Part shown: positions 9,400 through 60,030 of the stretch, in pieces
How positions within the stretch are numbered: position 1 is the first letter of the stretch
How the letters are laid out: each line of letters begins with the position of its first letter
Assembly (NCBI GenBank): GCA_963726985.1
Contig: CAVSEF010000001.1
Coordinates: 9,855-73,854, forward strand
Source of the DNA: an uncultured Solirubrobacterales bacterium
Lineage (GTDB): Bacteria; Actinomycetota; Thermoleophilia; Solirubrobacterales; Solirubrobacteraceae
Direction of reading: 5' to 3'
Length of the DNA: 64,000 bases
Program-made: the position numbers and the translations under genes
The notes under the pieces: model-generated
What the model was told of the DNA's origin: nothing
Seen by the model: only the letters and a program-made list of their open reading frames with translations
Database searches by the model: none

Positions 9400-12816
<3,417 letters not shown>

Positions 12817-37503: not shown

Positions 37504-37534
37504 ATAGCCACCCAAGGTGTCGAGTGACCACACC
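37504..37534 (-). promoter_or_regulatory. island motif copy H (GGTGTGGTCACTCGACACCTTGGGTGGCTAT)
   Basis: The core ACACCTTGGGTGG is present. It lies 57-87 nt upstream of ATG 37447 and points toward that gene. Confidence 0.6.
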
Positions 37535-37572
37535 TGCGCTTTCAGGCCAGTCCCTTCGACGCCCACGGGCAG

Positions 37573-37791
37573 CTACGTAGGTCTCGCCCGCGGCGAGGAT
37601 CTTGTCCTGTTGTGAATCAGGTCGTGGACCTTAACCTTGCCGGCTACAGCCGTCATACGGGACTGGTCGCATTCGTCGATGGTCAGCCAGTGGGTGCCCT
37701 CGACGGTCGTGCTGACGTAACGGCCGTTGGTGCCCCAGCTGCCGCCGTTGTCCGAGACCCAGAGGTGGCGGGAGAATTTCTTCGACATCAT
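37573..37791 (-). pseudogene. 5'-truncated, frameshifted remnant of the shared C-terminal module
   Basis: RHLWVSDNGGSWGTNGRYVSTTVEGTHWLTIDECDQS...GKVKVHDLIH aligns with 39642..~39900. After IHN the homologous reading (QDKILAAGETYVAAR) continues in another frame. Confidence 0.6.
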
Positions 37792-37792
37792 G

Positions 37793-38299
37793 TCAACCGA
37801 CGTATTCCAGGTCGACTTCTCTCACGCCTTCGGCCCTGGTGTAGAACAGTATCGACGTGACAACAGGCTTCCCTTCGAACGTTCCCTTGATCTGACAGTC
37901 CAGAGACTTCTTGGGAATCCACGGCCCAGGCCCGCACTTGAGCTTTGGATATGCCTTGCGAAACTTGGCGTAAGACGAGAAGGCTCCAATACCTTTGCTG
38001 GTCTTCTGTAGCTTGGAGTCCGTCCACATCGCATCCACTCGGAGTTCACGATCGAAACCGACTACGCCGTCGAAGCCAGCGGGATACTTCCAGGCGATGC
38101 GACCTTCAAAGTCGGGCGGTTCCTTGAACCCTGGCGGCCCAGTCACCGCTTCGACTTCCGCCTGCGTCATTCCCAGCTTTACGCCGCCAATGCTCTGCCC
38201 CACGATGATATTGGCGCTGGCGGTCGACGACAGCAGAACACCAATAGCCCCCATTGCCGTTAGCGCTACCCCGACGGCAACTACTAGACGTTGTCTCAT
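37793..38299 (-). CDS. exported hypothetical protein
   Basis: The ATG is preceded by GGGAGAAG. The signal reads MRQRLVVAVGVALTAMGAIGVLLSSTASA. 168 aa. Confidence 0.65.
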   Translation of the reverse strand: MRQRLVVAVGVALTAMGAIGVLLSSTASANIIVGQSIGGVKLGMTQAEVEAVTGPPGFKEPPDFEGRIAWKYPAGFDGVVGFDRELRVDAMWTDSKLQKTSKGIGAFSSYAKFRKAYPKLKCGPGPWIPKKSLDCQIKGTFEGKPVVTSILFYTRAEGVREVDLEYVG

Positions 38300-38509
38300 G
38301 CTTCTCCCTGTTTGTGTTTTGCCGCTAGCCGTGACCGTTCCTGCGTCCCGTAGCTGAGTGAGAAGGCTGATTGGGACGCCATGGCAGAGCACGCGAGGCC
38401 CATGTGACCGCTTGAGCGGGAGTAGTTAAGTTAGCGTCGACCGGCCCACAGGCGAAAAGAGAGGCCACGGCGAGCATAAGCGCAGCGTAAGCGACCCGAG
38501 CGCGAAGGC

Positions 38510-39538
38510 TCATGGTTGCCATACAGGCGAAGTTGGGACGTCGGATTGCACGTACTCGGGCCCGGTGCCGTTTTTGACGATCTCGTGGGCCTCTTGACCT
38601 TGCGCGTTCGTCACGAAGAGCCCCTGTAGGCAGGCCACGGCATAGAGCTGCCCGTGTGGAGAGTTCGCGGCCTCGAGCGGCCAGTAGCTTGAGCTGCCGC
38701 TGCGCAGGACGCGGTGCTTGCCCGTGGTCGGGCTGTAGAGACAGATGTCTGGGTGTTGGTCACCTGGCGCCGGGCACTCGTAGCTCACTTCTCCGCTGAT
38801 CGTGAAGTGGACGGGTTCGTCGTAGAACCTCGGAAGGAAGGTAGAGCGTGGTTCGGTGCCGCTCGTGGTCTCGACCGTCGTCAGCGTGTGGAAGCCGGTG
38901 CTCTCTTTGATCTGGTGCGTAAAGACCATGAGACTCCCGTTGCTGGAGTATTCGGCTGAGCCCGGTACGGGCAGCTTTTGGGAGACGCCGGTGCTGACGT
39001 TGACTTCCTCCAACGGCGTGAAGTCTTCTTCGAAGGGTTCCGGTGGTTCTTCCAAGAGCAGTTTCTGCGACCACATGTTCGGGTTCAGCGAGTACACGAT
39101 GTTGCCGCTCGAAGTGAAATTCGGGTTGTAGCCGAGGCCGAGGCGTCTACGGTCGCGGCCATTCGCATCGGCCACGTAAACCGCACGCGTGTTTTCCTCC
39201 ATATCCCCCTCGTCGCCATGGACGATGTTTGTCTCCATGTCGTACGTGAGGAGCTTGCCGTTAGGTGAGAAATGGGGGTGTCTCGGTACGTCCCAGACCA
39301 CGCAGCCGGCGCCACAGGTGGCGGTCCGCCACGGGATCAACTCGTGTAGATCAGTGCCGTTTGCTCGGATCTCGTAGATGCCCGTCTTGACCGAGTAGGC
39401 GATCTCGCCGGCCTGGAAGCGCGCGCTCATTGTGGCGCCCGACGTGAAGCCGGCGGCCGAGGCGCTCGCGGCAACCAGCAACAGCCACGCAACGGCCATC
39501 ACGGTCGTGCAGTAGATCCCAAAAATGGATCGCCTCAT
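38510..39538 (-). CDS. exported beta-propeller-like protein (TolB/PD40-like repeats)
   Basis: The signal reads MRRSIFGIYCTTVMAVAWLLLVAASASA. It has FSPNGKLLTY / YSSNGSLMVF-type repeat signatures. Confidence 0.68.
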   Translation of the reverse strand: MRRSIFGIYCTTVMAVAWLLLVAASASAAGFTSGATMSARFQAGEIAYSVKTGIYEIRANGTDLHELIPWRTATCGAGCVVWDVPRHPHFSPNGKLLTYDMETNIVHGDEGDMEENTRAVYVADANGRDRRRLGLGYNPNFTSSGNIVYSLNPNMWSQKLLLEEPPEPFEEDFTPLEEVNVSTGVSQKLPVPGSAEYSSNGSLMVFTHQIKESTGFHTLTTVETTSGTEPRSTFLPRFYDEPVHFTISGEVSYECPAPGDQHPDICLYSPTTGKHRVLRSGSSSYWPLEAANSPHGQLYAVACLQGLFVTNAQGQEAHEIVKNGTGPEYVQSDVPTSPVWQP

Positions 39539-39613
39539 GGATGCCTCTGTGCGGTCATTCGAATATCCTCTTCTAGTGGCTTGCGGAGCATTATCTCGCC
39601 TGGGAGAACGCTC

Positions 39614-39637
39614 GGCCACCCATCCAAGGTGTTAATC
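39614..39637 (-). promoter_or_regulatory. island motif copy I, short form (GATTAACACCTTGGATGGGTGGCC)
   Basis: It starts 4 nt after the stop of the module gene 39642..40542 and lies ~80 nt upstream of ATG 39538. Confidence 0.55.
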
Positions 39638-39641
39638 GCGC

Positions 39642-40542
39642 TCACCCCGACGGCTGACGGGTGGCTATGTACGTCTGGCCCGCGCTGATGACCTTGGTCT
39701 TGTCGTTGACCAGATCGTGCACCTTCACCCTGCCGGCCGCGACCTCTACCTCGGAGCGATTGCATTTATCGAGCGTCAGCCAGCGCGTGCCCTCGACCGT
39801 GGTGCTCACGTAACGGCCGTTGGTGCCCCAACTGCCGCCGCTCTCGGAAACCCAGAGGTGGCGTAACTTGGCGCCCGCGCGATGCCCGGCGCCTTTCGCG
39901 GGCGACTTGGCGTGAGGGTGGCCCAGCGGCAGGCTGCGCGGACATCCGGTGAGCGGCAGAGACAACGTTAAACGCGCCAGTGCATGAGCTCCGCTGGTCT
40001 GACGGAACGTGAAGATCCCCTCGTACACTTCCGCGCTTGCTGTCGGTCCGGCATGCGCGGTCGCCACGGTGATCAGCACGCGGCCGTCGGTGGCGTCGAC
40101 TTCGCTCCCGTTGGGGATGCTGGCCGAACCGGAGAGCGATACGAACGTGTTCGTGCCCTTGAGGCGGATTCTCACGGTCCCGGCGATCACCTTCGCGATC
40201 CCCCTGCCGGCCGAGGATCGGAGGTGGTGGGGGCTCTTCGACCGAGGGCGAGACAGGCTGCGCCGTCGCAGCCTGCACCGTGGGTGGCAGGGGTGGAGGT
40301 TGATATACGGCGACGCGATTCGTCGCGGGACGCACTGGACGGACAGCCTTGTTGGAAACCTTCGGCGCAAGGCGTGGTGGAGCGGACAGAACTACAACCA
40401 CCGGCGGCGGGGGAGGCGAGGATGCCTGTGTTTTCGTGAGCGACGCCAGCGCTACGCCGGACACCATCAGAACGACGGCGCACGCGATGATCGCCGCGTG
40501 AATTTGGCGCCTGCGCGCCGAGCGTCTATTTCTCGGTTTCAC
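39642..40542 (-). pseudogene. TM-anchored Pro-rich protein carrying the shared C-terminal module, split by a single frameshift at a G5 run
   Basis: The N-terminal frame (39766..40542) reads MKPRNRR...TM...PPPPPILGRQG. The module frame (39642..40370) reads IAKVIAGTVRIRLKGTNTFVSL... The frames meet at CAGGGGGAT (plus-strand C5 at 40200-40204). Removing one G gives LGRQGIAKVIAGTV, which aligns with the paralogs. Confidence 0.65.
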
Positions 40543-40689
40543 CAGATCCTCACCAAATCCACCAATCGGGATCGGTACAGTAGCAAGATCGGACGAGATA
40601 GACTCGCCCGGTGGTCGGCGACTTGCGTTCGCGTCAACCGACGGTGTACTGAACGCTCAGGCGCAACCGGATAGGATCGCATCTGGCGA

Positions 40690-42027: not shown

Positions 42028-42214
42028 GATCGGCTATCGGACGAGATTTGTCGAGAGCCATCTCCTTGTAGGCGACAGCTCACCCGCCCGCCCGGTATCA
42101 CGGCGCTTTGGCGAGATACCTGTGACCGGCCTTGACGATGACACGAAGGCATCACAACACCTTGGTTGGTTCCCGGGACGAGCGTTACGGTAGACACGGC
42201 CCGGGAGCCCCTCA

Positions 42215-43369: not shown

Positions 43370-43527
43370 ACCAAACGCGCTCACTTCTTGCGCCTCTTGA
43401 GCGGGCCATATCTTCGTGCTGCGCTCGGTGGTGGTTCACTTTTAAATCCGGCTCGTGACCCGCCAATCCCAGCTGGGGTGAACAGTGACTTCAGTAACGG
43501 GATTACATAGCCGCGAGCCGCCGGCTG

Positions 43528-44625: not shown

Positions 44626-44671
44626 GAGTAGCTCAGCTTATAGACGGCTCAGGAGTCCGAGCGTCTGCGGG

Positions 44672-46482: not shown

Positions 46483-46537
46483 TTCGATGCCTCCCGGTTG
46501 GTTACACCAGCAGCATCCGTGCTCTTGGCCGGCCTGG

Positions 46538-46568
46538 ATACCCACCCAAGGTGTGGAGCTTTGTTACC
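46538..46568 (-). promoter_or_regulatory. island motif copy G (GGTAACAAAGCTCCACACCTTGGGTGGGTAT)
   Basis: It lies 56-86 nt upstream of ATG 46482 and points toward that gene. Confidence 0.65.
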
Positions 46569-46653
46569 TGCTCGAGGTGGGCACGGGAGCGCCCCGAGCG
46601 ACTGGGAGCCGTGGTGGCACCCGCCTGTCACCGGCGCTCGGACGCACGACCCC

Positions 46654-46986
46654 ATGGGAACGGCCGGTTATGTACCGTGCATTGATCGAGATCATGGACG
46701 GCCGAGACCACCGTGCTGCGTGAGCAAACGGAAGTTCACGATCCACGTGCGCAAGCTGCCCGGAATCACGTGGGTCAGCGCGGTCATCAAGATCAATGGC
46801 AAGCGCGTGAAGTCCGTGGGACGCTCCCACATCACCGCGCTCGTGAACCTCGTGGGCTTGCCCAAAGGCACGTTCGTCCTTTCGATCACCGCCAAGGCGA
46901 GCAACGGACAATCGGTGACCGGGACACGGACCTACCACACGTGCGTTCAGAAAAGCAAAAGCCACTACCCGACTCCGAAGCTCTAA
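46654..46986 (+). CDS. small stand-alone copy of a ~85-aa module (CVSKRKFTIHVRKLPGITWVSAVIKINGKRV...)
   Basis: The same module ends the decayed gene 49030..50435. Here it is intact but lacks any N-terminal domain or obvious signal peptide. The start is uncertain. Confidence 0.4.
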   Translation: MGTAGYVPCIDRDHGRPRPPCCVSKRKFTIHVRKLPGITWVSAVIKINGKRVKSVGRSHITALVNLVGLPKGTFVLSITAKASNGQSVTGTRTYHTCVQKSKSHYPTPKL

Positions 46987-47052
46987 AGTGGGCAGCCGGC
47001 AAGGGCTTCCGATCAACAAGAACGAAGCCGTCCGGATAGGGTAGTCATTCGC

Positions 47053-47898
47053 ATGCGGCCCGAGAGTCCGAGAGCGTTGAGACGCGCGGTACTGGTACTG
47101 GCTGTTGCGGCCGCGGTCGGTGGACTGGGCGTGGCGCAGGCCCATGCCACTACCACGGCGCCTGCCGTCGCGGTGAGCGCCGGCTGGGGCCACTCCTGCG
47201 CAATCCTGTCGGGCGGCACCGTCGAATGCTGGGGCGAAAACGAGCAGGGCGAGCTCGGCAACGGAACGATCAAGGGCAGCTCTAGGCCGGTCGCAGTGAA
47301 GGGCGTGAGCAGTGCGATAGCGGTCAGCGCCGGCAATGAAGACACCTGCGCGCTGATCTCGGGTGGAGCCGTTGAGTGCTGGGGCCTGAACGTCAAGGGC
47401 GAGCTCGGCAACGGGACGACCAAGAACAGCTCCACGCCGGTCGCGGTGAAGGGCGTGAGCAGCGCGATCTCTGTGAGTACCGGCATCTCGAGCACATGCG
47501 CCCTCCTGTCGGGTGGAACCGTTGAGTGCTGGGGCGACAACGAGAACGGTGAACTCGGCGACGGGACGACCAAGAACAGCTCTACGCCGGTCGAGGTGCA
47601 GGGTGTGAGCGACGCGATCGCGATTGCCAACGGGGAAACCCACTGCGCGATCATTGCCGGCGGGACCGTCGAGTGCTGGGGCTATAACGCGCAGGGCGAG
47701 TTAGGGAACGGCACGACCGAGAGCACCACCACACCGGTCGCCGTGAGCGCCTTGAGCAACGCTACCGCAATCAGCGCGGGTTACGCCTCATGTGCGGTAG
47801 TTGGGATGGGCTCGGTCGAATGCTGGGGTCATAACGAAGAAGGAGCGGGGACGGAGCCAGCGCGAGTAATTCCACGCCGGTCTCCGTGGCCGGGGTGA
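47053..47898 (+). CDS. exported RCC1-repeat protein, N-terminal part (5 repeats), ending out of frame
   Basis: A signal peptide is followed by GG(T/A)VECWG.N..GELGNGT...SS.PV.V.G units. After ECWGHNEEG the frame reads [17 protein letters not shown], whereas another frame continues [25 protein letters not shown]. Confidence 0.75.
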
Positions 47899-48779
47899 GC
47901 AGCGCGATCGCAGTCAGCGGCCTCTCCGCCACAACGTGTGCCCTTCAGTCGGGCGGCACCGTCGATTGCTGGGGCCGAGGAGAACTCGGCAACGGAACGA
48001 CCGACAACAGCTCCACTCCGGTGCGCGTGAGCGGGCTGACAAACGCGATCGCCGTGAGCGCCGGCGCAGGCCATAGGTGCGCAGTCTTGTCAAACGGCAC
48101 CGTTGAGTGCTGGGGCGACAACGACGTCGGCCAGCTCGGCAACGGAACGACTAAGAACAGTTCCACGCCGGTCGTTGTCAGGGGCCTCGGTCAGCCTTCG
48201 ACGAATGCGAACGGGGGATCGGCCGGGCCCGTCCTTGGACACACGGGAAGTCTGAACACGGTCTCCGGCAGCGTGCTCGTGAAGCTGCCCGGATCGTCGA
48301 CCTTCGTCCCGCTGACAGCGGTCGGCCAGATCCCGTTCGGTACTGTCGTGGACGCGACGCACGGCCGCGTGTCGGTGACGACTGCGGGCCCGCACGGCAC
48401 CACCCAGACGATCACCCTCTCAGAAGGCGAATTCGTACTCACGCAGGGCCGCAACGGCATGTTCGTCGCGACGCTCACCGGCGGCGACTTCTCCGTTTGC
48501 CCCACCGCACAGGAGCGAGCACACACCGCCCACGCCGCGTCAACGCACGCGACGGGCAAACACGTCGTGCGCAAACTGTGGGCCGAAGGCCACGGCAACT
48601 TCACCACTGACGGCAACTACGCCTCCGCGTCCGTACGCGGCACCCGCTGGCTGACCGAGGATCTCTGCGAAGGCACGCTGATCCACGTGGCGACCGACCG
48701 GGTGGCGGTTACCAACCGGGTTAACCACCACCACGTCACAGTCAAGGCTGGACACAGCTACCTCGCGAAAGCGCCATGA
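47886..48779 (+). CDS. continuation of the RCC1-repeat protein (2-3 repeats) plus an intact shared C-terminal module
   Basis: [16 protein letters not shown]... and [19 protein letters not shown]... are followed by [39 protein letters not shown]...[28 protein letters not shown]...[11 protein letters not shown]. Together with 47053..47898 this was probably one gene, split by a frameshift near 47840-47890. Confidence 0.72.
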
Positions 48780-48937
48780 CTGCGGCCGGGGAGGCGTCCC
48801 TAGTTGCAGGCGACAAGCTACTTGAGATCGCTTTTGCGGGGCCGACCGGTCGTCTGGGACTCGGCATATTCGCCGGCGCCGCTCGGCCTGTCTCGGGCAA
48901 GGCGCCTCGGAGCGCCCGCCGTTATGCTGGCCGCTCA

Positions 48938-48968
48938 GGTAACAGACGCCTACACCTTGGGTGGGTAG
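48938..48968 (+). promoter_or_regulatory. island motif copy A (GGTAACAGACGCCTACACCTTGGGTGGGTAG)
   Basis: It lies 62-92 nt upstream of ATG 49030, whose SD region reads CCAAGAGGGGA. Confidence 0.65.
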
Positions 48969-49029
48969 TCGCGCTTCGAGCGATGGCAGATGCTTGCTGA
49001 GTAATCCGACTCCAAGAGGGGACACCGCA

Positions 49030-50435
49030 ATGCTCACGCCTAGCGATCACCACAAGCAGTCGCCGATCGACCCGTCCAGGTCTAGACTACGTGACCGCCG
49101 CATCCGCGGCATATCGATGCGGGGGGACCTCGCTGTGCCATCCATACGCAGCACGCTGAGCGCGATTGCCGTGGCAAGCGTCCTTCTCGTGCTGCCCGCA
49201 GTGCTCACGTCGACGGCACTGGCATCCTCTGGTCGACAGGCGTCGACCTCGGTCGACGCCTCCGTGGCGCCTGCGGCCTCGACTAGCGATCCTCTCGTCG
49301 GAGACTGGTACATAACTTACGGGAACACGACGGTGGTCGAAATCTCTGAATCCGGCGGCGTGTACACCGGGACCGCAACGGAACCGGTTCAAGTAACGGG
49401 GAGTTCGTGTTATCTACCGGCGGGCACGGTCATCTCCACGTTCAAAGTCTCGGGAGGCGGCTACTCGGGGAACACGGGCTGTGGTTCACGTCCTGTTCGT
49501 TTAACAAAGAGGCGCCGATGACACTCAAGCTTGAAGGCAACACCTTGAGCGGCGAAATTGTAGGCGTCGAACGACTGGTATACACCAGACAAGCGGTCGC
49601 GGCTCCGCCGAAAGCGTCGATCGAATCTCCAGCGAGCGGTGGCACCTACCAGCAGGGCGCGGCCGTCACGACTAGATTCTCGTGCATGGAAGGCGAGGCC
49701 GGGCCGGGGATTGAATCGTGCGCGGACTCCAACGGCGGGTCTGGCACCTCCGGCGTGCTTGAAACTTCGACCCTGGGGCTGCACACCTACACGGTGACCG
49801 CGAAGAGCAAGGACGGCCAGGCTGGCACGGCATCGATTAGCTACAACGGTCCTCGGGGCGCAGCACATCACGTTCACCTCGACGGCGCCCGCCTCGGCGA
49901 CCGTCGGCGGAGTTAGCTACACCGTGGCCGCGACCGGTGGCGCCTCGGGGAACCCGGTGACGTTCTCTTCGGGAGCGCCTACGGTCTGCTCCATCTCAGG
50001 TGCGACCGTCAGCTTCACCGGCGCGGGCACCTGCACGATCGCCGCGAATCAGGCAGGCAATGCGGACTATTTGAGCGCCCCTCAGGTAACCCAGTCGTTC
50101 ACGGTGACCCCGAAACCTAAAGCGACACCCAAAGCGATCTCCGCCGTCGCCGCCTTCAGCCTCCCACCCGCTAGACAGTGCGTGAGCCACCGCAAGTTCA
50201 CAATCCACGTACGGACGCTGCCCGGCATCACGTGGGTCAGCGCGATCATCAAGATCAACCACAAGCGCATAAAGACCTTGGAGCTCCACATCACGCGTTG
50301 GTGACCTTGGCCTGCCCAAAGGCACGTTCGTGCTCTCGATCACGCAACGCGAGCAAGGGCATCGGTGACCGGGACGCGGACCTACCACACTGCGTTCCGA
50401 AAAGCAAAAGCCACGACGTCGCACCGAGGCTTTAG
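49030..50435 (+). pseudogene. exported multi-domain protein broken by at least 5 frameshifts
   Basis: The homologous reading hops between frames. It runs from 48961-frame (signal peptide...GGGYSG) to 49407-frame (...LKLEGNTLSGEIVG...TYTVTAKSKDGQAGTASISY), then to 49924-frame (ATGGASGNPVTFSSGAPTVCSISGATVSFTGAGTCTIAANQAGN...CVSHRKFTIHVRTLPGITWVSAIIKINHKRIK). It then changes frame several times across the last 200 nt, judged against the intact copy 46654..46986. Confidence 0.6.
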
Positions 50436-50488
50436 CGATGCACGGCCTAACGACCGGGATCAATGGGGCGATCCTCAGAGGGGCCAAC

Positions 50489-51334: not shown

Positions 51335-51348
51335 GGGCGCCCCGCGAT

Positions 51349-53189
51349 ATGCGACGACATCCACGACGCGTGTCCCTGCTGGTGGCTGCCGCCACGTTCG
51401 CGGCGGCCGGGGCGATGGCCGTGCCGGCGCACTCGGCGGAAGTCAGCTGGACGATCGTGCCCACACCCGTCCCGGTCGGGCCCACCGAGAGTCTGTTGCG
51501 AAGCGTGTCGTGCGTATCCGCGCAAGCCTGCATGGCCGTTGGCTTCACCGACGATGGGCATCCAGCGGTCAACGGCGAAGCGGTGGCCATCGGCTCGCTG
51601 GCCGAGAGCTGGAATGGCTCTTCTTGGACCCAGGTTCCCGCCCCCCGCGTCGGCGGGCGCGAACCCGGAGCTGTATTCCGTCTCGTGTGCGTCCGCGGTG
51701 TTCTGCGTCGCGGTCGGGCACACCGAGGGGACTCCGCCGCGAACGCAACCGAATTCGACGACCACGCGGAACCAGCCTCGAGGGCGATCGTGGAGACGTG
51801 GAACGGAACAGCATGGACGGTGCAGCCGAATCCCGCCGCAGCTCTTCCGGCGAGCACGCTTGGCGGCGTCTCGTGCCGCTCGGACTCATTCTGCATCGCG
51901 GTAGGGGCCAGCCGTGTACAGGCACGTGAACGTGCGCTCGCGGAGGTGTGGAATGGGACGAGCTGGAAGCTGCAGAGCCCGCCGCGAATCGCGGGTCAAG
52001 GCGCCCACCTGCAGGCCGTCTCGTGCGTCCTGGGTTCGTGCCAGGCCGTGGGTGTCTACCTCCCACGACCGGAAGATCCCCTTCTCCTCGCGGAGCGCTG
52101 GGACGGGAGTCGCTGGAGCGTGGAGCCTCCGAGCGCAACCTCGCGCCTGAGCCAAATGGCGTCTCGTGCGTGTCGCGCTCCTTTTGCCTCGCGGTCGGTA
52201 GCGCCGGGTCGCGCGCCGGCCCCATCGTGGCGCCCCCGTTCGCCGAGCGCTGGAGCGGCTCGCGTGGACGCCGCTCACGCCGGGACTGCCGAAGCACGGG
52301 GAACTCGACGGCGTCTCCTGCGTGACGAGCGCATTCTGCCTCGCGGTGGAGCAGCTCGATCAGCAGCCCGTTCCCGGCGACGGCAGGACCCCTGCTCGAG
52401 AGCTGGAACGGATCCCGCTGGTCGCGCAGCACCACCCCAGCCGTCCCGGTGCCCAGCCTCTCCCCGGAGCCGGAGTTCCCTGACCCGCTGGACCCTGCGC
52501 TGTTGGGCATCTCCTGTGTCGCGCAGATTGGCTGCACGGCCGTCGGCGCGCAGGCCGCCGGCTCCAACCTTGTGCCGTTGGCGCAGAGCGAGGCGGGTGC
52601 CCCGAGCGCTCCGCCCCCGGAACCCGCTCTAGCACCCGCATCGGTGCTCGGACGAAGCGCCGACGTCAAGACCCTGTCGGGAACCGTGTTGGAGCGACTC
52701 CCCGGGAACCACGCGTTCGTGCCACTCTCCTCATCGACGCAGATCCCGTTCGGTACGGTCGTGGACGCGACCCACGGCAGCGTGTCGGTGACGACTGCGG
52801 GCCCGCACGGCACCACCCAGACGATCACTCTCTCAGAAGGCGAGTTCGTACTGACGCAAGGCCACAGCGGCATGGTGGTGGCAACGCTCGCGGGCGGTGA
52901 CTTCTCGGTGTGCCCGACCGCACAGAAGCGAGCTCACCTCGCCCGCTCCGCGTCAACACACACGACGGGCAAACACGTGGTGCGCAAACTGTGGGCCGAA
53001 GGCCACGGCAACTTCACGACCGGCAACTACGCCTCAGCGTCCGTGCGCGGGACCAAGTGGCTGACCGAGGACCTCTGCGAAGGCACGCTGATCCACGTGG
53101 CGACCGACCGCGTCGCGGTCATAGATCGCGTCAACCACCATCACGTCATCGTGAAGGCCGGACACAGCTACCTCGCGAAAGCGCCATGA
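51349..53189 (+). pseudogene. exported protein of SVSC.S...C.AVG / WNG..W repeats plus the shared C-terminal module, broken by at least 4 frameshifts
   Basis: The repeats are readable in turn in the frames of ORFs 51349, 51539, 51349, 51948 and 52449. The last 190 aa (52449-frame) carry the module ...SVLGRSADVKTLSGTVLERLPG...[11 protein letters not shown]. Confidence 0.6.
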
Positions 53190-53199
53190 CAGCGGCCGG

Positions 53200-53230
53200 A
53201 GTAACAGAGCCCTACGCGTTGGTTGGCTGG
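53200..53230 (+). promoter_or_regulatory. island motif copy B (GAGTAACAGAGCCCTACGCGTTGGTTGGCTG)
   Basis: It starts 11 nt after the module stop (53189) and lies ~100 nt upstream of ATG 53328. Confidence 0.6.
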
Positions 53231-53327
53231 CTATGAAGATGCGGACCACGAATACTGGGTGAGCAGACCAGCTTTCAAAGGAGACTCCGATGCGCATGCG
53301 ACTCACAATCATCACCGTCCTCGCCTC

Positions 53328-54864
53328 ATGAGACTGCTGGATCGTTTCTCGCGAGCAGGTGCAGTCCGACTGACTGGGATGCTGGTCGCGGCGGTAGCCA
53401 TAGCGGCATGCTGCGTCGGCGTGTCCTCGGCGGCGCCACAGAAGGCATCCGCACGATCCCCGTCGGCATCGCCCCTTGGCGTGTCTTCGGATGGAACCCA
53501 CGTCTGGGTCGCGAACACAGCGAAAATACGGTCAGTGAGATCGAAGCGTCGAGCGGCGAAGTCATCCGCACGATCCACGTCGGCAGCCGCCCCGAAGGCG
53601 TGTCTTCGGATGGAACCCACGTCTGGGTCACGAACTCCGGCGAAGATACGGTCAGTGAGATCGAAGCGTCGAGCGGCAAAGTCATCCGCACGATCCCCGT
53701 CGGCACCGCCCCAAAGGCGTGTCTTCGGATGGAACCCACGTCTGGGTCGCGAACGCCATCGAAAGGTACGGTCACTGAGATCGAAGCGTCGAGCGGCACC
53801 GTCATCCGCACGATCGCAGTCGGCAGCCACCCCCAAGGCGTGTCCTCGGATGGAACCCACGTCTGGGTCACGAACGCCGGAAATACGGTCAGTGAGATCG
53901 AAGCGTCGAGCGGCACCGTCATCCGCACGATCCCCGTCGGCAGCACCCCCATAGCGTGTCTTCGGATGGAACCCACGTCTGGGTCGCGAAGCGACGAAAA
54001 TACGGTCAGTGAGATCGAAGCGTCGAGCGGCACCGTCATCCGCACGATCCCCGTCGGCAGCCCCCCAAGGCGTGTCCTCGGATGGAACCCACGTCTGGGT
54101 CACGAACTCGAAGATACGGTCAGTGAGATCGAAGCGTCGAGCGGCACCGTCATCAACACGATCCCCGTCGGCAGCGCCCCCAGGCGTGTCCTCGGATGGA
54201 ACCCACGTCTGGGTCACGAACCGACATTCGTTGCCGAAGCCTTTTGACGGTACCGTCAGTGAGATTGCGACCAGCTAAACGGCAGCCAAGCTTCCGCTCC
54301 CGAAGCTGGCTGGTGACGGGCAACCTGACGCCGGTTTCCGGCAGCGGTGCTGGTGAAGTCTGCCTGGCATCCTCGACCTTCGTTTCTCTGGCGGCGGTCC
54401 GTCAGATCCCGTTCGGGACGGTGATTGACGTCACGGATGGGGGTCGTGAGCGTGACGACCGCGCTTCCCGGTGGGGGCACCCAGACGGGCGAATTCTTCA
54501 AAGGTGAGTTTGTGTTGACCCAGGGCCGCAATGGACGGGTGGTGGCGACGCTGGCAGGCGGGAACTTCTCGACTGTCCGACTGCCCGTGAGCGAGTCACA
54601 AGGCGAGCGCGCAGTTCAGGCACGCGCAGCCGGCGTCGGGGAGCCAGGCGGTGCGCAAACTGTGGGCCAACGCGCACGGCAAATTCTCCACTAAGGGCAA
54701 CTATGCCGCCGGGGGCGGTGCAGGGCACCGAATGGCTGACGGAGGATCTATGCGAAGGAACTTTAATCAAGGTCACCCGCGACAAGGTCGCGGTGACGAA
54801 CCTCGTCAACCACCGTCACATCACGATCACGGCGGGCCACCGCTATCTGGCCAAGGTGCCGTGA
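53328..54864 (+). pseudogene. exported YVTN/NHL-like beta-propeller repeat protein plus a decayed shared C-terminal module; many frame changes and one in-frame stop
   Basis: The signal reads MRLLDRFSRAGAVRLTGMLVAAVAIAACC. Seven units of (TVSEIEASSG.VIRTIPVG..P.GVSSDGTHVWV.N) follow, then a module remnant (VSGSGAGEVCLASSTFVSLAAVRQIPFGTVIDVTDG ... [42 protein letters not shown]) spread over 3 frames. Confidence 0.6.
53478..54278 (+). repeat. tandem array of 7 coding repeats (periods 120, 120, 117, 117, 114 nt, then 136)
   Basis: The anchor GTCAGTGAGATCGAAGCGTCGAGCGGC recurs at 53531, 53651, 53771, 53888, 54005, 54119 and 54255. The core GGCGTGTC(T/C)TCGGATGGAACCCACGTCTGGGTC recurs at 53478, 53597, 53716, 53837, ~53953, 54069 and 54183. 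Confidence 0.9.
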
Positions 54865-54919
54865 GCACGAGCCGCGGACCGAGCAGGTGGGGGCACCGGA
54901 AGACCCGCTCGTTGTGTCG

Positions 54920-54950
54920 GGTAACAGACGCCCACACCTTGGAGGGCTGG
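54920..54950 (+). promoter_or_regulatory. island motif copy C (GGTAACAGACGCCCACACCTTGGAGGGCTGG)
   Basis: It lies 56 nt after the decayed module stop (54864) and 62-92 nt upstream of ATG 55012. Confidence 0.65.
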
Positions 54951-55011
54951 CTACAGCGACGCCGACGACGGATACTGCTGAGCAAGACAACTCCAAATGG
55001 GGAGTATTCCA

Positions 55012-55407
55012 ATGCGCAGACGACTGATCACTATCGCCATTCTCATCACGGCCGTAGCCGCGATCTCCACGACGCCCGCGGCGGCCGAACGATCCTGCGG
55101 CACTGAGCGTGTCCGGCCCGGCAGGACCGGCCCCGCTACGGCGGGTTCTACGAGCGATTCGGGCCTCCCTTACAGGATCAGCGTGTCGCGCGGATCGGTC
55201 ACCTGCGCCAAGGCGCGCAGCCTGATAAAGGACACGGGCGAAGGTAAGGGCACGTGGCACGAGGCTCCCGCCCTCTCGGGGATTTACACGAGCTTTCCAG
55301 GCGGCTGGTCCTGCTCCCCCGTCGCAAATGGAGGGTATGGCTGCGTGCAGGGTCGGCGCGTCGGCGCCTTCCAGCACGCGGACACGATCTCCGGCGCACA
55401 GCTCTGA
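55012..55407 (+). CDS. small exported Cys-containing protein (hypothetical)
   Basis: The ATG is preceded by GGGGAG. The signal reads MRRRLITIAILITAVAAISTTPAAA. It has the motifs RISVSRGSVTCAKARSLI and PGGWSCSP. Confidence 0.65.
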   Translation: MRRRLITIAILITAVAAISTTPAAAERSCGTERVRPGRTGPATAGSTSDSGLPYRISVSRGSVTCAKARSLIKDTGEGKGTWHEAPALSGIYTSFPGGWSCSPVANGGYGCVQGRRVGAFQHADTISGAQL

Positions 55408-55946
55408 CGATCAGCCGGCCGGCGGGCGGCGACTCCGCTACGTCGCCGCGTCGCTCGGCGGGCGGCGGCGCCGGCGTCGAACCGCCGCGACCTCTTGAAA
55501 TCCCGATCGAGGTAGAGGGCGGTTTGATTTCCGGGCGGTTCGATTTCCTTCGGTGGCAAGGGCTTGGGTGTCATGGACCTCTCTACCGCCAAGACGGCCA
55601 GCGACGAAATCGTCTGCGCGATCATCAGGATCCCGACCGCGCCCGACGGCCATGAAGCGCGAGCCGAACCTTACGCGCGTTTTCCGCGCGCAGTGCCTCA
55701 TAACCATAGCCGACAGCGGCAAGCCAGCCCAGCGTGTCGGATTCAGCGGGCACGCGAGCACCAAGCGAGTGTCGTCCTCCGTTGCGACAGCATCCATGCC
55801 AGTTGGGAGGACCGCCCGTAGCGGCGAAGCGGTCGTCACGGGTGCCGGCACCTGACCCCGCTTGGCCAATGCCGCCGCACGCAACGCCGTGATCGAGAGC
55901 AGAAGATCGTTGGGGACGCGCAGCCGTCCAGTGCGCCTGTCGCTCG

Positions 55947-55977
55947 GGTAACGAAGACCTACACCTTGGTTGGGTAG
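55947..55977 (+). promoter_or_regulatory. island motif copy D (GGTAACGAAGACCTACACCTTGGTTGGGTAG)
   Basis: It lies 70-100 nt upstream of a 25-codon ORF (56047..56124; SD region CCAAGGGGGA). That ORF overlaps the GTG of 56121..56873 by GTGA. Confidence 0.6.
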
Positions 55978-56120
55978 CCCTGCCTGCGTTGGTTGCGCCG
56001 GATCACGGGATTCTCCTCAGATCCGACTACCAAGGGGGACAGAGAGATGCCCAAGCCAACCGATAGCTACGAACAGTTGTCGCTCGACGACTTCACCTCA
56101 ACGATGGACACAAAGGGAGC

Positions 56121-56873
56121 GTGAATATTGTGGCTCAGCTTATCGTGATCGTGATTGTTGCACCGATTCTGTGGCAGTTGCCGAGGGTCTGCTGGCCGGT
56201 GCATGTGGATTCCTCGGGCATGCGTTTTACTGGGCTCTATTCGCGCTACTCAATTCAGACCGCGACCGGATACGCCAGTGGTATTCGCACTTGGACTGGT
56301 GAGGCGCTGAGCACTGGTTCGGTCAGCGCCCAAACGACCGGCCCGGTGATTGGCAGTAGCGTCGTCGCCAGTACGACTTTCAGCGACAGTCGTAGGACCT
56401 TTGTTGTTCGGCACACCGGTTTCTTTCTTGAGGATCGCGCTGGAGCTATGCACGAGGTGGACGCGGCCAACGTTGGGCCGTCGATGGCCGATGGTCACCT
56501 TGTGTCGGTCGCCTGGCTCGTACACAACGGGAAACGCGGTAACGCATTCTTGGTCGCGAACCACACGACCGGCAGCGTGTACATCGAGAAGACGCGGGCC
56601 GGGGGAGATAGGAATGCGCGACGCAGGCCTGGTCAAAATGGTGTTCCCGATGCCCTTGCCTATCCAGGTGCTCCTTCTCCTTCTGATCGTCACCATACCG
56701 TTGATGATCGTGATTGGGGTGGCGGCCATGTTGCAGCTGCGGTGGTTTGGGACGCGTGGTTCTCGGCCCCTGGTGGCCTTGTTGGGCCGCAATGCGGCCG
56801 AGATGCCGTCGCGCACTCGCGCCGCTGGCGGGAATGTGGCGATGGCGCCGGTGCATCGTGCGGGCGCGGTTGA
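56121..56873 (+). CDS. membrane-anchored hypothetical protein (3' end doubtful)
   Basis: It has an N-terminal TM (IVAQLIVIVIVAPILW) and a plausible ~165-aa domain up to ...GSVYIEKTRAG. Beyond ~56610 the frame looks non-coding and overlaps the SHOCT gene, so this is either a frameshift or an earlier true stop. Confidence 0.4.
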   Translation: MNIVAQLIVIVIVAPILWQLPRVCWPVHVDSSGMRFTGLYSRYSIQTATGYASGIRTWTGEALSTGSVSAQTTGPVIGSSVVASTTFSDSRRTFVVRHTGFFLEDRAGAMHEVDAANVGPSMADGHLVSVAWLVHNGKRGNAFLVANHTTGSVYIEKTRAGGDRNARRRPGQNGVPDALAYPGAPSPSDRHHTVDDRDWGGGHVAAAVVWDAWFSAPGGLVGPQCGRDAVAHSRRWRECGDGAGASCGRG

Positions 56874-56994
56874 CTTCGCCTCTCAGATGAAGGAGATCAC
56901 CGTGCTCCACGAGTCGGGGTCCCTTACGCCTGACGAGTTCCAGGCCGCTAAGGCGAAGCTGCTTGACACACGGGTCGCGGGGGGACGGCGGTGA
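56614..56994 (+). CDS. membrane protein with a C-terminal SHOCT domain
   Basis: The ATG is preceded by GGGGAG. It has a TM (LPIQVLLLLLIVTIPLMIVIGVAAML) and ends EITVLHESGSLTPDEFQAAKAKLL (SHOCT signature). Confidence 0.6.
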   Translation: MRDAGLVKMVFPMPLPIQVLLLLLIVTIPLMIVIGVAAMLQLRWFGTRGSRPLVALLGRNAAEMPSRTRAAGGNVAMAPVHRAGAVDFASQMKEITVLHESGSLTPDEFQAAKAKLLDTRVAGGRR

Positions 56995-57079
56995 CCGCGG
57001 TGGCGATATTCGTCTTTGGGCGCTAGCTCGCTACGCCGACTGGCACCCTCATCGTGGTGCCTGACGCGCTTGGGAAGGT

Positions 57080-57502
57080 TCAGCGGGCCATGCCCGTCAA
57101 ATCAGCGACATGGCAGGTGCAGGTCTTGCCGGACCGCGACGGGGATGCCGAGCCGTCCACACGGGAGCATGAGCAGAACCCGCCGTGACGTAGTCCCAGC
57201 GCCCGCGAGCGCGGCGCAAGATGACGACACCGTTGAACCCCCAGCGGCCGCACGAGCGATAGTGGAGGCCGTTGAAGCCGACGGTCGGCCCAGTTGCCGC
57301 CGTCCTTGGTCGTCACCTGGGCAAACAGGCAGCGCTCCGGGATGCCGGGAGGCAACTGCGGGGCCGCAGCTCGGTCGATCGCATTCCGAGTACTGCCGGT
57401 CGCGACTCGACTAGCGACAGCGACCGCTGGCACGACGAGCCCGAGGACGATGATGATGGTGATGATCCGCTTCACGATCTGCTCCCGTGTCGATGGTTCC
57501 AT
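57080..57502 (-). CDS. TM-anchored hypothetical protein (3' half doubtful)
   Basis: MEPSTREQIVKRIITIIIVLGLVVPAVAVASRV... The second half has a non-coding-like composition and may be frameshifted. Confidence 0.35.
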   Translation of the reverse strand: MEPSTREQIVKRIITIIIVLGLVVPAVAVASRVATGSTRNAIDRAAAPQLPPGIPERCLFAQVTTKDGGNWADRRLQRPPLSLVRPLGVQRCRHLAPRSRALGLRHGGFCSCSRVDGSASPSRSGKTCTCHVADLTGMAR

Positions 57503-57504
57503 GC

Positions 57505-57533
57505 GTCTCACCCCAAGGCGCTATTGCTCACCG
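57505..57533 (-). promoter_or_regulatory. island motif copy J, weak (CGGTGAGCAATAGCGCCTTGGGGTGAGAC)
   Basis: Only CGCCTTGGGGTGAG matches the core. It abuts the start of 57080..57502. Confidence 0.35.
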
Positions 57534-57630
57534 AGCGGGTCACCGGCACCCTACCGATGACGTGCATCGCGTGCCGGACCCGACGGCGCTCGGGCATCGG
57601 CGCGCGGGCAGGCGGCGGGCGGCGCCCAGT

Positions 57631-58005
57631 TCACGTCTTCCTCGCGTTGCCAACGGCGTCGTAAGCATCGATTGACGCGCCCGGGCGGCTGCAGTCCGCC
57701 TCGAGGCCGTGGTCTCCCTTGGACTCGACGGCGCTCAGGAAAGCGCACTGCCAGCCACCGGGTTGGCGTATCCCACAGATCCGTCCTGATCCACAAGCCC
57801 CCGACGCCCTCGTCGCGTCGAAACGCGTCGGTACGCGCGACGAGCTTGAGCGCAGGACACCTTGCCGCGCAGCACGAGTCGCCATGTGGTTGCCTTACCA
57901 GACGCCGTGCCTATCTGGACCAGGCACGGGGAGAGCAATCGACCCGTCGCGCCTCGCCTGCGCCCCAGTCGTCGTCAGCACAACCACGACAGTGAATGCC
58001 GCCAT
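57631..58005 (-). pseudogene. frameshifted paralog of the small exported protein 55012..55407
   Basis: The signal MAAFTVVVVLTTTGAQA, then TTWRLVLRGKVSCAQARRAY, then PGGWQCAF..., each lie in a different minus-strand frame (ORFs 57895.., 57735.. and 57631..). Confidence 0.4.
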
Positions 58006-58944
58006 CGCAAAGCTGAAAGTCGCCCGACCGTGTCGCGGGACTCGCCGCCAATGACCTCGCTGTCCCACCAACTCGTCCCCGCCCATCCGGTCCACATTCT
58101 CCGCTGGCCTGTATTCCATAGTGTAGGCGTTCACGCGGTTGTGAGCCGGACCGGGATCGGCGTCATCGCATCGCTCGCCATGGCGGGGTACGCTCGCTCG
58201 CGACCGTAACGGGTTGCGCGCCTGGCCTGCAATCCATGACTCAAACGCAAAATGCACAAGGGGGATGTCATGAAGCGACTCATCCTTCGCAGCGGCGTTG
58301 GCTCTTCGGGCTGACGCTGCCCGCCATGGCCCAAGCGAGCGATTCCTCAGCCGATCTACTTCTGGGGGAGCGTCGCTGCGCCTCCCGGAAGCGATCCGAG
58401 GGCCCGGTCTGCCCACCCAGCCAGAGGTTATTCGTCCCTCAGGTGATCGCTGTCTATAACGAGGACGGCGCATGGTCCATTGAACGATCTGCATTGGACT
58501 GGTTGGGGCTCAAGCGTTGCCCACGCCAACGGGAATCAGCAGCGCGAGCAACGGCATCCCGAACCATGGCTCAGGGGAAGCGGATAAAGAAGCCAGCCCA
58601 GGTCACTCTGTCGAACCCCGGGCGGTTCTTCAGGGCCACGAGGTGTACCGCTGCTTCATGGTCAAGGTCGCTCCCCCGACCCAACGGGTTGAGCACCTAT
58701 GCCTCGAAGGTCATCATGGCCTCTGGGTCCTGAATTAGCGCTGAGCACCGTTCTCTGGCATGCCGGATTGGCGTTTACGGGCACGGCTGCTCGCCGACGA
58801 CGGTCGAGCGCCGGCGGCGAGGGTGCCCCACTTGCGCAATCGAACAGAAGCGAGCGCATCGCCCGTTTGATCGCGGGCTGCTGAGTTGGACGGTGGCTGT
58901 TGCGTAAAGGGGTGCCGTCCGGCGGGTTGAAGAGGATGCTGGGT

Positions 58945-59252
58945 ATGCCCCAGAACTTCATAGCTTGTGACCGTGAGCAGGATCTGTTGTTGCCGCCGAG
59001 TTTGAGGGAGTGGTTGCCGGAGGATCATCTTGGCGTGGTTCGTGCTGGCGAGCGACCGAGGAGATGGATCTGTCGGCGTTCTATGGGGCCTACCGTGGCG
59101 ATGGCCACGGTCGTGCGGCGCACGAGCCGGGGATGATGCTCGCGCTGTTGCTTTACGCCTACTGCAAGGGGCAGCGCTCCTCGCGGTTGATCGAGCGCGA
59201 GTGCGTGGAGGACGTGGCCTACCGGGTGATCGCGGCGAATCAGCGCCCGGAG
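58945..59252 (+). mobile_element. IS1182-family transposase N-terminal remnant (frameshifted and truncated)
   Basis: MPQNFIACDREQDLLLPPSLREWLPEDHL / AWFVL / DLSAFYGAYRGDGHGRAAHEPGMMLALLLYAYCKGQRSSRLIERECVEDVAYRVIAANQRPE matches the DUF772/InsH-type N-terminus, spread over three frames. No DDE domain follows. Confidence 0.7.
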
Positions 59253-59769
59253 AGGACCCGACCTCAGGTCGCGTGCAGGCGAGGGCGTACCGGTGTACAT
59301 GGGGATCATCGCGGGGATGGATGAATGGCATCAGAGGAGAGTGATCGTAGTCAGGCCGCCCGCACCACCGCCTCGGACGAACCTCGCGGAATACGTCGAA
59401 CCCCCGCTACAGCGATGGGCCTGTCGCTCCAAACCCACCTTCGGCGGCCAGGCCATGCAGGTCACCTGCCAGCGCGGGCACGCGACGGTCACCGCGCAAC
59501 TGGGTGAATGAGCCTCGTAGGTTCGCGGTGACACCGGCCGTCCGTCGCGATCGCGCAATGGTTCGCTTGGTCGCAGGAGCTTCTCGATAGCGCGGCCAAG
59601 CCGGCGGAGACGCGTCGACTTCCGCTTCGCGTGATCGCGCGCGACCGTGCACCCTCGGTCACGCTGCAAGGAGGAGGGAAGACGCTGCGACCCCTACGCC
59701 GTCGAGCCTCTCGCCTTCCCGCGGAACAACCTGCAAGCTAGACGGCAACCGACCTGCGCGGCGTCTCAA

Positions 59770-59851
59770 GCCCCGTGGCTGTTGCCACCGGGTTAACCAC
59801 CACCACGTCACAGTCAGGGCGGGTCACAGCTACCTCGCGAAAGCGCCATGA
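59770..59851 (+). pseudogene. orphan 3' end (~25 codons) of the shared C-terminal module
   Basis: GGGTTAACCACCACCACGTCACAGTCAGGGCGGGTCACAGCTACCTCGCGAAAGCGCCATGA is nearly identical to 48718..48779. Confidence 0.7.
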
Positions 59852-59861
59852 CAGCGGCCGG

Positions 59862-59892
59862 GATAACAGAGCCCTACACCTTGGTGCACCCG
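59862..59892 (+). promoter_or_regulatory. island motif copy E (GATAACAGAGCCCTACACCTTGGTGCACCCG), solo
   Basis: It follows the orphan module end with the same CAGCGGCCGG spacer as copy B. No convincing ORF follows it. Confidence 0.55.
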
Positions 59893-59999
59893 CGGGGGAT
59901 CGAGGGTCAACTCTCGCGAAGTGATCGGGTTTAGCGTTCTTCCCGTAAGCGTTCCGTCCCGCTGGATTTGGTGAACGCAGGCGCTCCGGCTTCTCCAGT

Positions 60000-60030
60000 G
60001 GTAACACAGGGCTACACCTTGGGTGTCTGC
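60000..60030 (+). promoter_or_regulatory. island motif copy F (GGTAACACAGGGCTACACCTTGGGTGTCTGC)
   Basis: It lies 244-274 nt upstream of the kinase start (60274). A partial inverted copy (GCAACAGAGCCCTC on the minus strand) sits at ~60222-60240. Confidence 0.55.

Follow-up and report, generated by a model that had tools for sequence, protein, structure and literature searches.

Here we describe a repeated element of ~60 bp in a 64-kb stretch of DNA from an uncultured Solirubrobacterales bacterium (contig CAVSEF010000001.1, positions 9,855–73,854; hereafter the window, with positions counted from its first letter), which is very probably the promoter/operator module of a local regulon. The element has a fixed geometry and orientation, lies in front of one class of genes (those for secreted, lipoprotein, and membrane-anchored proteins), is conserved across an order-level lineage, and is linked, in both directions of search, to a neighboring pair of genes for a sensor Ser/Thr protein kinase and a regulator with a forkhead-associated (FHA) domain and a LuxR-type helix-turn-helix (HTH) domain. 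The reading that we favor as a whole is probable and somewhat more detailed: a composite promoter/operator module which would be read by the FHA-LuxR regulator under the control of the kinase.

With one mismatch or less, the core of the element, ACACCTTGGNTGG, occurs eight times in the window, whereas 0.14 occurrences are expected and none of 100 shuffled sequences reached eight. All of these matches fall within 37.5–60 kb, an island of lower GC content (62–67% vs. ~69–71% in the first 32 kb). An nhmmer profile built from 20 copies and run over the window detected nine significant copies (A, B, C, D, E, F, G, H, and I; E-values from 1e-16 to 4e-4) and none in 1–37 kb, in agreement with the first-pass annotation of this sequence, which had seen no motif in the 0–32 kb half. 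That annotation had counted about ten copies. Nine of them are significant in the profile; the tenth, J (57505–57533), went undetected and has neither the core nor the flanking boxes, and a further site, K, had been overlooked. Pairwise identity among the eight window copies is 0.88 in the core and 0.45–0.59 in the flanking 15 nt. Elsewhere between −80 and +140 it stays at a background of ~0.27 outside −16 to +14, with a smaller bump at the −10 element. Because identity outside the core and its flanks is at background, the copies are not fragments of one larger repeated element; their similarity is limited to ~35 bp plus the −10 element.

Alignment of the copies revealed a unit that is longer and more rigid than the 31-mer first reported: GGT(AAC), 8 nt, ACACCTTGG(G)TGG(G), 24 nt of unconserved sequence, and (C)GGAT(G/A)CT. 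Nearly all copies have GAT.CT exactly 28 nt from ACACCTTGG. In a minority class, which comprises D, H, and the counterparts of H in two loci outside the window (L051 and L132; such loci carry L numbers throughout), the GGAT element lies 3 nt further off (31 nt). The core holds a dyad, ACACC-TTG-GGTG(G/T), which is a perfect palindrome in F, L006a, L010a, L051, and L132 and is separated from the hexamer by 24 nt in most copies and by 27 nt in the D and H types. The upstream GGT(G/A) box is a repeat of the right arm of the dyad, 22 bp further 5′. As had been noted, (G/A)TAAC precedes the core in seven window copies (A, B, C, D, E, F, and G); the same position holds GGTGTG in H and GGTGAG in I. 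Among 33 representative copies, GTAAC is present in about two-thirds, and the rest have GGTGTG, GGTGAG, GGTGAT, GGGGTC, GGGGGA, or GGGTTA with core and spacing kept. In the hexamer GAT(G/A)CT of these 33 copies, A2, T3, and T6 are nearly invariant and positions 4 and 5 are variable (GATGCT, GATACT, GATAAT, GATGAT, AATACT, and CATGCT).

On the 3′ side of the hexamer there is a CA-rich leader of ~30 nt (AATCCAACTCC...AAGGGGGA), then a strong Shine–Dalgarno (SD) sequence and a start codon 72–91 nt from the first base of the core; the leader with its SD measures 22–32 nt, apart from leaderless cases. The leader sequence is kept across nonhomologous genes (A, C, D, and G in the window and most copies in L004–L140), and it could enhance translation or be bound by a post-transcriptional factor. 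We predict from its sequence and position that GAT(G/A)CT is a −10 element. Two copies show a leaderless geometry, with an ATG 6 nt past the hexamer: L041 (GATGCT-atgggc-ATG, an RTX secreted protein) and L115 (GATCCT-ctctcc-ATG). An ATG this close to the −10 is the geometry of leaderless actinobacterial mRNAs. A scan of 44.5–60.4 kb for consensus sigma-70 promoters found no sites and no TTGACA-like −35, indicating that the modules are not standard −35/−10 promoters. A −35 hexamer was also sought 16–19 nt 5′ of GATGCT, and the stretch there is unconserved. Assuming a transcription start 7 nt past the hexamer, the dyad is centered at ~−43 and the GGT box lies at ~−62.

Seven of the window copies (A, B, C, D, G, H, and I) are followed by a same-strand start codon with an SD 72–86 nt from the start of the core, which bears out the orientation and gene proximity claimed at first sight. 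In the island, calling of genes by GC content at third codon positions was set aside (lower GC, frameshifts), and homology and SD plus ATG positions were used instead. Copy A (48936–48994, +; E-value 1e-15) is a full module with a GGTAAC box, the core ACACCTTGGGTGG at 48952, a 24-nt spacer, and GATGCT. Its gene, starting with ATG 49030 (+), encodes a 163-amino acid protein with an N-terminal tail plus a transmembrane (TM)/signal segment. Copy G (46512–46570, −; 1e-16), also full with GATGCT, precedes the gene for a 353-amino acid Ig-like (Glucodextran_B) lipoprotein (ATG 46482, −), and copy C (54918–54976, +; 7e-15), full with GATACT, precedes that for a 131-amino acid secreted protein containing Cys (ATG 55012, +). 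Copy D (55945–56006, +; 1e-10) has the GGTAAC box and the core, with the GGAT element 3 nt further (spacing 31, GATCAC), and is followed by a 25-codon open reading frame (ORF; ATG 56047, +) and then by TM/SHOCT genes. Two variants occur on the minus strand. Copy H (37475–37536, −; 4e-4) combines a GGTGTG box, the core, and GGATGCG at spacing 31 in front of the gene for a 407-amino acid secreted protein with a PASTA domain (ATG 37447, −), a variant also kept in L051 and L132. Copy I (39590–39648, −; 4e-12) combines a GGTGAG box, the core ACACCTTGGATGG, and GATAAT in front of the gene for a 342-amino acid secreted protein (main ATG 39538, −) and is kept in L052 and L061. The leader of copy I contains an upstream ORF of 7 codons (MTAQRHP) from 39558 (−), whose stop overlaps the main ATG (ATGA). 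This small ORF is missing from the orthologous leader in L052 and is probably not a conserved feature.

The remaining copies are degenerate or lack a gene. Copy B (53198–53256, +; 6e-6) has a degenerate core (ACGCGTTGGTTGG) and AATACT and begins 9 nt past the stop codon of the preceding gene; its own gene (53290–54247, +) consists of 13 signal-peptide codons frameshifted into a YVTN/beta-propeller repeat gene. The first-pass annotation had described E and F as solo or distant from any ORF, which can be explained. Copy E (59860–59885, +; 1e-4) is a truncated remnant with box and core, no −10, and no gene. Both B and E are preceded by a 97-nt repeat, which represents the 3′ end of a paralogous gene, and E is a truncated duplicate of B. 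Copy F (59998–60055, +; 6e-10), with the core ...GGGTGT, a spacing of 27, and GATAAC, has decayed. Its orthologs in L006, L010, L017, and L024 are functional promoters of a lipoprotein gene that the window has lost by deletion; a terminator-like hairpin (60120–60135) lies between F and the kinase gene. Site K (42157–42169, +) is an exact 13/13 core with neither GGT box nor −10 (profile E-value 0.03), located 130 nt past a Wzy_C gene and 5′ of an ATPase gene, and may be a remnant or a bare operator.

The module is not confined to this genome; many Solirubrobacterales genomes and contigs from soil metagenomes have it, and a kinase gene and a regulator gene of the kinds described below almost always lie no more than a few kb away. 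We scanned one genome per species (GTDB) with the pattern GTAAC-N8-ACACCTTGG-N-TGG and found 26 loci, nine of which (10 copies) are in Solirubrobacterales metagenome-assembled genomes. All 10 Solirubrobacterales copies have GGATGCT at the identical distance, an SD, and an ATG, none of which was required by the pattern. The other 17 matches, from assorted phyla, lack the hexamer/SD/ATG architecture and behave as chance matches. A reciprocal scan of JGI metagenomes with the pattern core-N24-GAT.CT detected ~15 high-GC contigs with the full architecture, all of which have GGT exactly 14 nt 5′ of the core, though the pattern did not require it. In addition, the region 46.9–60.3 kb of the window has a strain variant in ENA, the 13-kb contig L001, with 94% identity and 1.3% gaps. 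In copy A of L001 the box and core are identical and the spacer has the same length, with the spacer sequence wholly replaced. The spacer is thus constrained in length and free in sequence, which is characteristic of protein–DNA geometry and not of an RNA. The gene-specific module variants (H, I, F, and G types) stay with their own gene across genomes.

Nearly all products of the genes behind the module, in the window and in related loci, have a signal peptide, a lipobox, or an N-terminal membrane anchor. For the window this had been claimed before, and it is confirmed for A, C, G, H, and I, while the product of B is frameshifted after its signal-peptide codons and D reaches its TM protein only past the 25-codon ORF. 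The products across loci belong to at least 12 unrelated families, which include Ig-like/Glucodextran_B lipoproteins and PASTA, beta-propeller/YVTN, RTX, PKD, NHL, small Cys, and TM/SHOCT proteins. The earlier statement that the downstream proteins are not homologous is supported to this extent; it needs correction in that the A, G, and D types share leader and N-terminus and that B and E share the upstream 3′ end. These shared leaders and first codons, together with the paralogous 3′ end of B and E, indicate that partial duplication and recombination helped the module to spread. As had been argued, the shared motif is not a by-product of whole-gene duplication, and it is an oriented, gene-proximal transcription signal of secreted and envelope genes.

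Two features recur among the proteins themselves. An N-terminus of the form M-x-(S/T)-T-P-x-Q is common in motif-driven proteins (49030, 46482 (−), and 56047 in the window; L004, L006, L010, L020, L025, L040, L050, L063, and L088). Regardless of their extracellular domains, such proteins have a cytoplasmic tail of 25–45 amino acids before the anchor or lipobox, and these tails could be targets of the kinase or the FHA domain. A C-terminal domain of ~185 amino acids without a Pfam match (48222–48779, 52626–53189, and 39642–40205) is found in RCC1-repeat, Cys-repeat, and other island proteins and recurs in L004, L010, L020, L034, L040, L052, L061, and L067. Its function could be the anchoring or export of these proteins.

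At the edge of the island lies a gene for a CHASE2 sensor plus Ser/Thr protein kinase (60274–62385, +; CHASE2 5e-42, Pkinase 3e-32), which is followed by a gene on the opposite strand for an FHA plus LuxR/GerE-type HTH regulator (62391–63097, −). In the window the latter is spread over three frames, with FHA to ~62830, the linker "YRAGGATPVQETVTAGEAPALAG", and the HTH. Frame changes are also seen in the B gene (53290–54247, +) and an RCC1 gene (46987–48779, +), and the middle of the kinase gene translates to an Arg-rich out-of-frame stretch. Because these other genes are broken as well and L001 differs by gaps to the extent given above, the frame splits of the regulator are probably long-read errors. 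In related short-read loci the regulator is intact as a single protein of ~234 amino acids (FHA E-values from 1e-15 to 1e-17). The GerE/LuxR HTH was matched in 24 of 24 aligned homologs (best 1e-6), two of which (P0003 and the L115 homolog) exceed the GerE gathering score (24.4 bits vs. 23.5), and the profile of the regulator family matches the DNA-binding domains of LiaR and VraR in PDB, its nearest relatives of solved structure. In the 24 sequences the FHA residues GR, SxxH, and NG(T) are invariant, as is a Thr in the motif TVTAG of the linker between FHA and HTH. The L115 regulator is 52% identical, with a nearly invariant HTH, and the same core is present at its locus.

Comparison of the island proteins with the family loci by tblastn showed that the cargo differs per locus and that the kinase and the regulator recur almost everywhere. 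In the nine Solirubrobacterales species of the GTDB scan all matches lie at this locus, and the kinase or the regulator gene is found within the 8-kb locus in eight of the nine. The location of all strict-pattern copies in whole genomes at the kinase/regulator locus speaks for a regulator that acts locally and against a global sigma factor. Conversely, among seven distinct loci fetched solely through homologs of the regulator, four have significant copies of the module (E-values from 5e-10 to 1e-14), two have weak copies, and one has none; the last (L137) is rearranged and has an insertion sequence element and no kinase. The CHASE2-Pkinase gene adjoins the regulator gene, usually convergently, in the window, in six of the seven regulator-selected loci, and in most motif-selected loci. 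Two loci, L003 and L115, have the regulator gene and a motif copy in divergent orientation, with the start of the gene no more than ~30 nt from the copy. A regulator that is divergent from, and abuts, its own site is typical of locally acting, autoregulated factors.

From these arrangements we infer the binder, activation as opposed to repression, the exact transcription start, and control by the kinase, as follows. Beside the kinase and regulator genes, every transcription unit of the variable island, which encodes secreted, lipoprotein, and membrane-anchored proteins, would begin with the module, and transcription would start ~7 nt past GAT(G/A)CT. The FHA-LuxR regulator is the probable candidate for the reader, to judge from genomic linkage. 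Its dimer would sit on the ACACC-TTG-GGTGG dyad centered near −43, with a weaker second contact on the GGT box 22 bp further 5′. Bound there, the regulator might recruit RNA polymerase to a promoter that has a −10 and no recognizable −35, in a class-II-like manner; this type of activation is a tentative part of the scheme. The neighboring kinase would set the activity of the regulator via phospho-threonine recognition by the FHA domain, as in PknH/EmbR, and the invariant Thr of the TVTAG linker may be a lead for phosphorylation control.

Several points weigh against this scheme. The pairing of regulator and motif is one of genomic linkage only, and copies elsewhere in whole genomes were assessed by the strict pattern only. 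In the window the regulator is broken by two frameshifts, which are probably long-read errors; it could also be a pseudogene. The dyad is short (arms of 4–5 bp), and its right arm and the GGT box are symmetric in part only. Strict class-II geometry would be unlikely to tolerate easily the additional 3 nt of the D and H types. Conservation of the AATCCAACTCC–AAGGGGGA leader exceeds what a promoter needs. Finally, the housekeeping −10 in Actinobacteria is TANNNT, and the first G of GATGCT, which follows a conserved CG, is unusual for such an element. Because of this initial G and its CG prefix, an alternative sigma factor may read the hexamer.

Such a factor leads to one of two other explanations in which the module is still a site for a protein, and both are unlikely. 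In the one, the motif is the promoter of an alternative sigma factor (extracytoplasmic function [ECF] or other group 3/4) whose regulon is switched by a sigma/anti-sigma pair encoded elsewhere, with GGTAAC as −35 and the TTGGGTGG region or the downstream CGGATGCT as −10. GTAAC does resemble the "AAC" −35 boxes of ECF promoters in about two-thirds of the copy types, envelope and secreted proteins are a typical ECF theme, the hexamer with its atypical G fits a nonhousekeeping factor, and the L115 module precedes an ECF-like sigma gene. However, AAC is absent in H, I, L041, L065, L048, L132, and L135a–c with core and spacing kept. A −10 of the CGT/GTC type was not found 16–17 nt past AAC, where TTGGGTGG occupies the position, and the distances of 45 nt (GGTAAC to GATGCT) and 24 nt (core to GATGCT) match no known −35/−10 spacing. 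The more specific layout of the first-pass annotation, GTAAC as −35 and GGGTA as −10, does not survive comparison, as GGGTA is unconserved among the 33 copies (GGGCCA, GGCTGG, GGGTTA, or GGGTCG are found instead). No Sigma70 domain was present in the Pfam-scanned island ORFs (part of the window ORFs) or among the called genes of the regulator-selected loci, and tblastn with an ECF-like sigma fragment found nothing in the window or the family loci; an anti-sigma gene was likewise not seen in the scanned ORFs and loci. The sole exception is L115, where the module is 5′ of a sigma gene. In the other explanation, which we also regard as improbable, the module is read by a different DNA-binding protein, either another regulator of the genome or the AT-hook/winged HTH protein encoded at 32237–32851, and the linkage with kinase and regulator reflects only a shared island location. 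The linkage is indeed circumstantial, the island holds further putative DNA-binding genes, and L137 has the regulator and no motif copy. On the other hand, the kinase and regulator genes are the sole genes consistently beside the motif where the cargo differs, the regulator is divergent from and abuts the motif in two distant lineages, its HTH is conserved in parallel with the core, and the other loci lack a counterpart of the 32237 protein.

The first-pass annotation had also kept open a 5′-leader RNA element and a small mobile element, and neither finds support, in that there is no conserved structure, no extended repeat, and no viral copy with the architecture. That the sequence acts as RNA (riboswitch, thermometer, or anti-SD sequestration by CCUUGG/CCAAGG) was suggested by the complementarity of the core CCTTGG to CCAAGG beside the SD in many copies and by the unusual conservation past the −10. 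We consider it extremely unlikely. RNAalifold on 20 diverse copies gave −1.2 kcal/mol without informative covariation, and the consensus has four pairs, three of them invariant (a 3-bp GGT/ACC contact). CCUUG/CAAGG pairing occurs in 67% of cells with no compensatory change, and the anti-SD pairing is no better than controls (500 of 500 shuffles reach it, and the slid control at +1 gives 80%). A search of the whole window against Rfam at gathering thresholds found a tRNA and no match to the motif. Moreover, the 24-nt spacer is fixed in length and free in sequence without a common hairpin, and the leaderless L041 and L115 put the core outside the transcript. A mobile or recombination element (MITE/REP-like, att-like, or a cassette boundary), with the gene-proximal position secondary, would suit an island that is a mosaic: a 2.3-kb insertion separates G and A, genes between F and the kinase gene are deleted relative to L006, E is a truncated duplicate, and a transposase fragment (DUF772) lies at 59010–59324. 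This too is very unlikely, given the short extent of the similarity between copies (~35 bp plus the −10), the lack of terminal inverted repeats, target duplications, or a recombinase gene, and the fact that every full copy aims at a start codon 72–91 nt off. In addition, the H, I, F, and G module types are each conserved with their own gene across genomes, and a scan of viral contigs gave four low-GC matches without the architecture. The copies may promote homologous recombination as a side effect.

Some further observations concern the L115 locus, other sigma factors, and the makeup of the island. In the region 784–1142 of L115, a 1.1-kb JGI contig from a more distant lineage, the module occupies the ~60 bp that separate the divergently oriented FHA-LuxR gene from a leaderless gene for an ECF-like sigma factor (Sigma70_r2, 4.5e-17). 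The consensus sequences of sigma-28/WhiG, SigF/SigB, and SigD-type promoters, used as leads only, were rejected for mismatches of spacing or sequence. In L034 (4650–4730) the promoters G and A are divergent and 73 nt apart, and the window holds an inserted 2.3-kb segment between them (46575–48935), which comprises a gene fragment similar to 50179–50281 and the RCC1-repeat gene with ATG 47053, preceded by GGATAGGGTAGTC. The short ORF 59010–59324 (+), whose L001 counterpart (12155–12469) matches DUF772, a transposase family, lies just 5′ of remnant E and is the only mobile-element trace in the island. Another ORF (32237–32851, +) contains 30-nt and 21-nt tandem repeats with A6 runs (32496–32664), encoding KKVGRPxG (AT-hook-like), and its product has weak C-terminal matches of the winged-helix/MarR type; on these features the protein, encoded at the border of the island, may bind DNA or be nucleoid-associated. 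Likewise at the island edge, two overlapping genes (33924–35014, +), one for a nucleotidyltransferase (Polbeta/NTP_transf_2) and the other a partner ORF of 174 amino acids, look like a toxin–antitoxin pair.

Returning to the module as a promoter/operator read by the FHA-LuxR regulator, a more far-reaching and rather unlikely extension would be that kinase, regulator, and module together make up a self-contained "plug-in" expression system for a fast-turnover island of surface proteins with recombining homology patches. If so, any gene landing behind the module would come under kinase control, and the modules, the leader, and the M-x-T-T-P-x-Q tails would act as homology patches for the swap, insertion, and deletion of cargo between strains, a recombinase-free analogue of a cassette array. 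The Thr-rich tails of the cargo might then be targets of the kinase or the FHA domain and provide feedback from the envelope to the regulator.

Solirubrobacterales are abundant soil Actinomycetota. Our literature search found no published work on gene regulation in this order, no Solirubrobacterales promoter motif, and no characterized FHA-LuxR regulator beyond a domain census. With the cis-element, the likely regulator, and the sensor kinase all readable from sequence, the locus offers a compact and testable regulon of a Ser/Thr-kinase pathway, and direct links from kinase to promoter are, to our knowledge, rare in bacteria outside PknH/EmbR. The proposed scheme would also give a first function and a candidate binding site to an uncharacterized class of FHA plus LuxR regulators. 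In addition, the module marks a hypervariable secreted/surface-protein locus that probably shapes the interaction of the bacterium with its surroundings, and it could serve as a portable, signal-controlled promoter for the Solirubrobacterales lineage.

Among known systems, ECF regulons resemble the one described here in having a short oriented motif before nonhomologous envelope-protein genes and, in most copies, a GTAAC box. ECF-sigma promoters have a −35 "AAC" and a −10 "CGT"; here, in contrast, the defining −10, the spacing, and a sigma/anti-sigma pair were not found in the scanned ORFs and loci, and conservation is highest in a dyad that lies between the supposed −35 and −10. Activators of the LuxR/NarL/FixJ type bind dyads overlapping the −35 region, and the lux box is centered near −42.5. 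The present system is similar to these in its GerE-type HTH (24 of 24) and in the short dyad ACACC-N3-GGTGG at ~−43 with a fixed distance to the −10 and no recognizable −35. It differs from them in the regulatory domain, which is FHA instead of a receiver or autoinducer-binding domain, in the extra GGT box 22 bp further 5′, and in the two spacing classes (28 and 31 nt). The dyad matches none of the boxes that we know of for NarL (TACYYMT), DosR, LiaR, or GerE. The architecture FHA plus LuxR_C has been described as a rare actinobacterial LuxR subfamily in Nocardia and Rhodococcus, with an origin of the fusion in their ancestor, in a census that assigns to it neither a function nor a binding site or regulon (Santos et al. 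2012, PMC3466318). Our family has the same two-domain architecture and, unlike the census proteins, is found in Solirubrobacterales (Thermoleophilia).

The closest parallel in circuit design is PknH/EmbR of Mycobacterium tuberculosis, in which a Ser/Thr kinase is paired with an FHA-containing activator of the embCAB cell-envelope genes (PMC4601284). Both systems have a membrane sensor Ser/Thr kinase, an FHA-bearing transcription factor, and cell-envelope targets, and in both the kinase would control promoter binding by the FHA factor, which for the present system we propose from the genes alone. EmbR has an N-terminal OmpR-type winged HTH plus a BTA domain (SARP), whereas the regulator described here has a C-terminal LuxR/GerE four-helix HTH; the sensor of our kinase, unlike that of PknH, is CHASE2, and the targets form a variable array of up to ~9 promoters beside the regulator. 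Thus, a circuit of kinase, FHA transcription factor, and local regulon is of a type already known and is not a new category, and what is added here is a cis-regulatory module that is real, lineage-wide, and not described before, together with a regulator and a sensor that plausibly belong to it.

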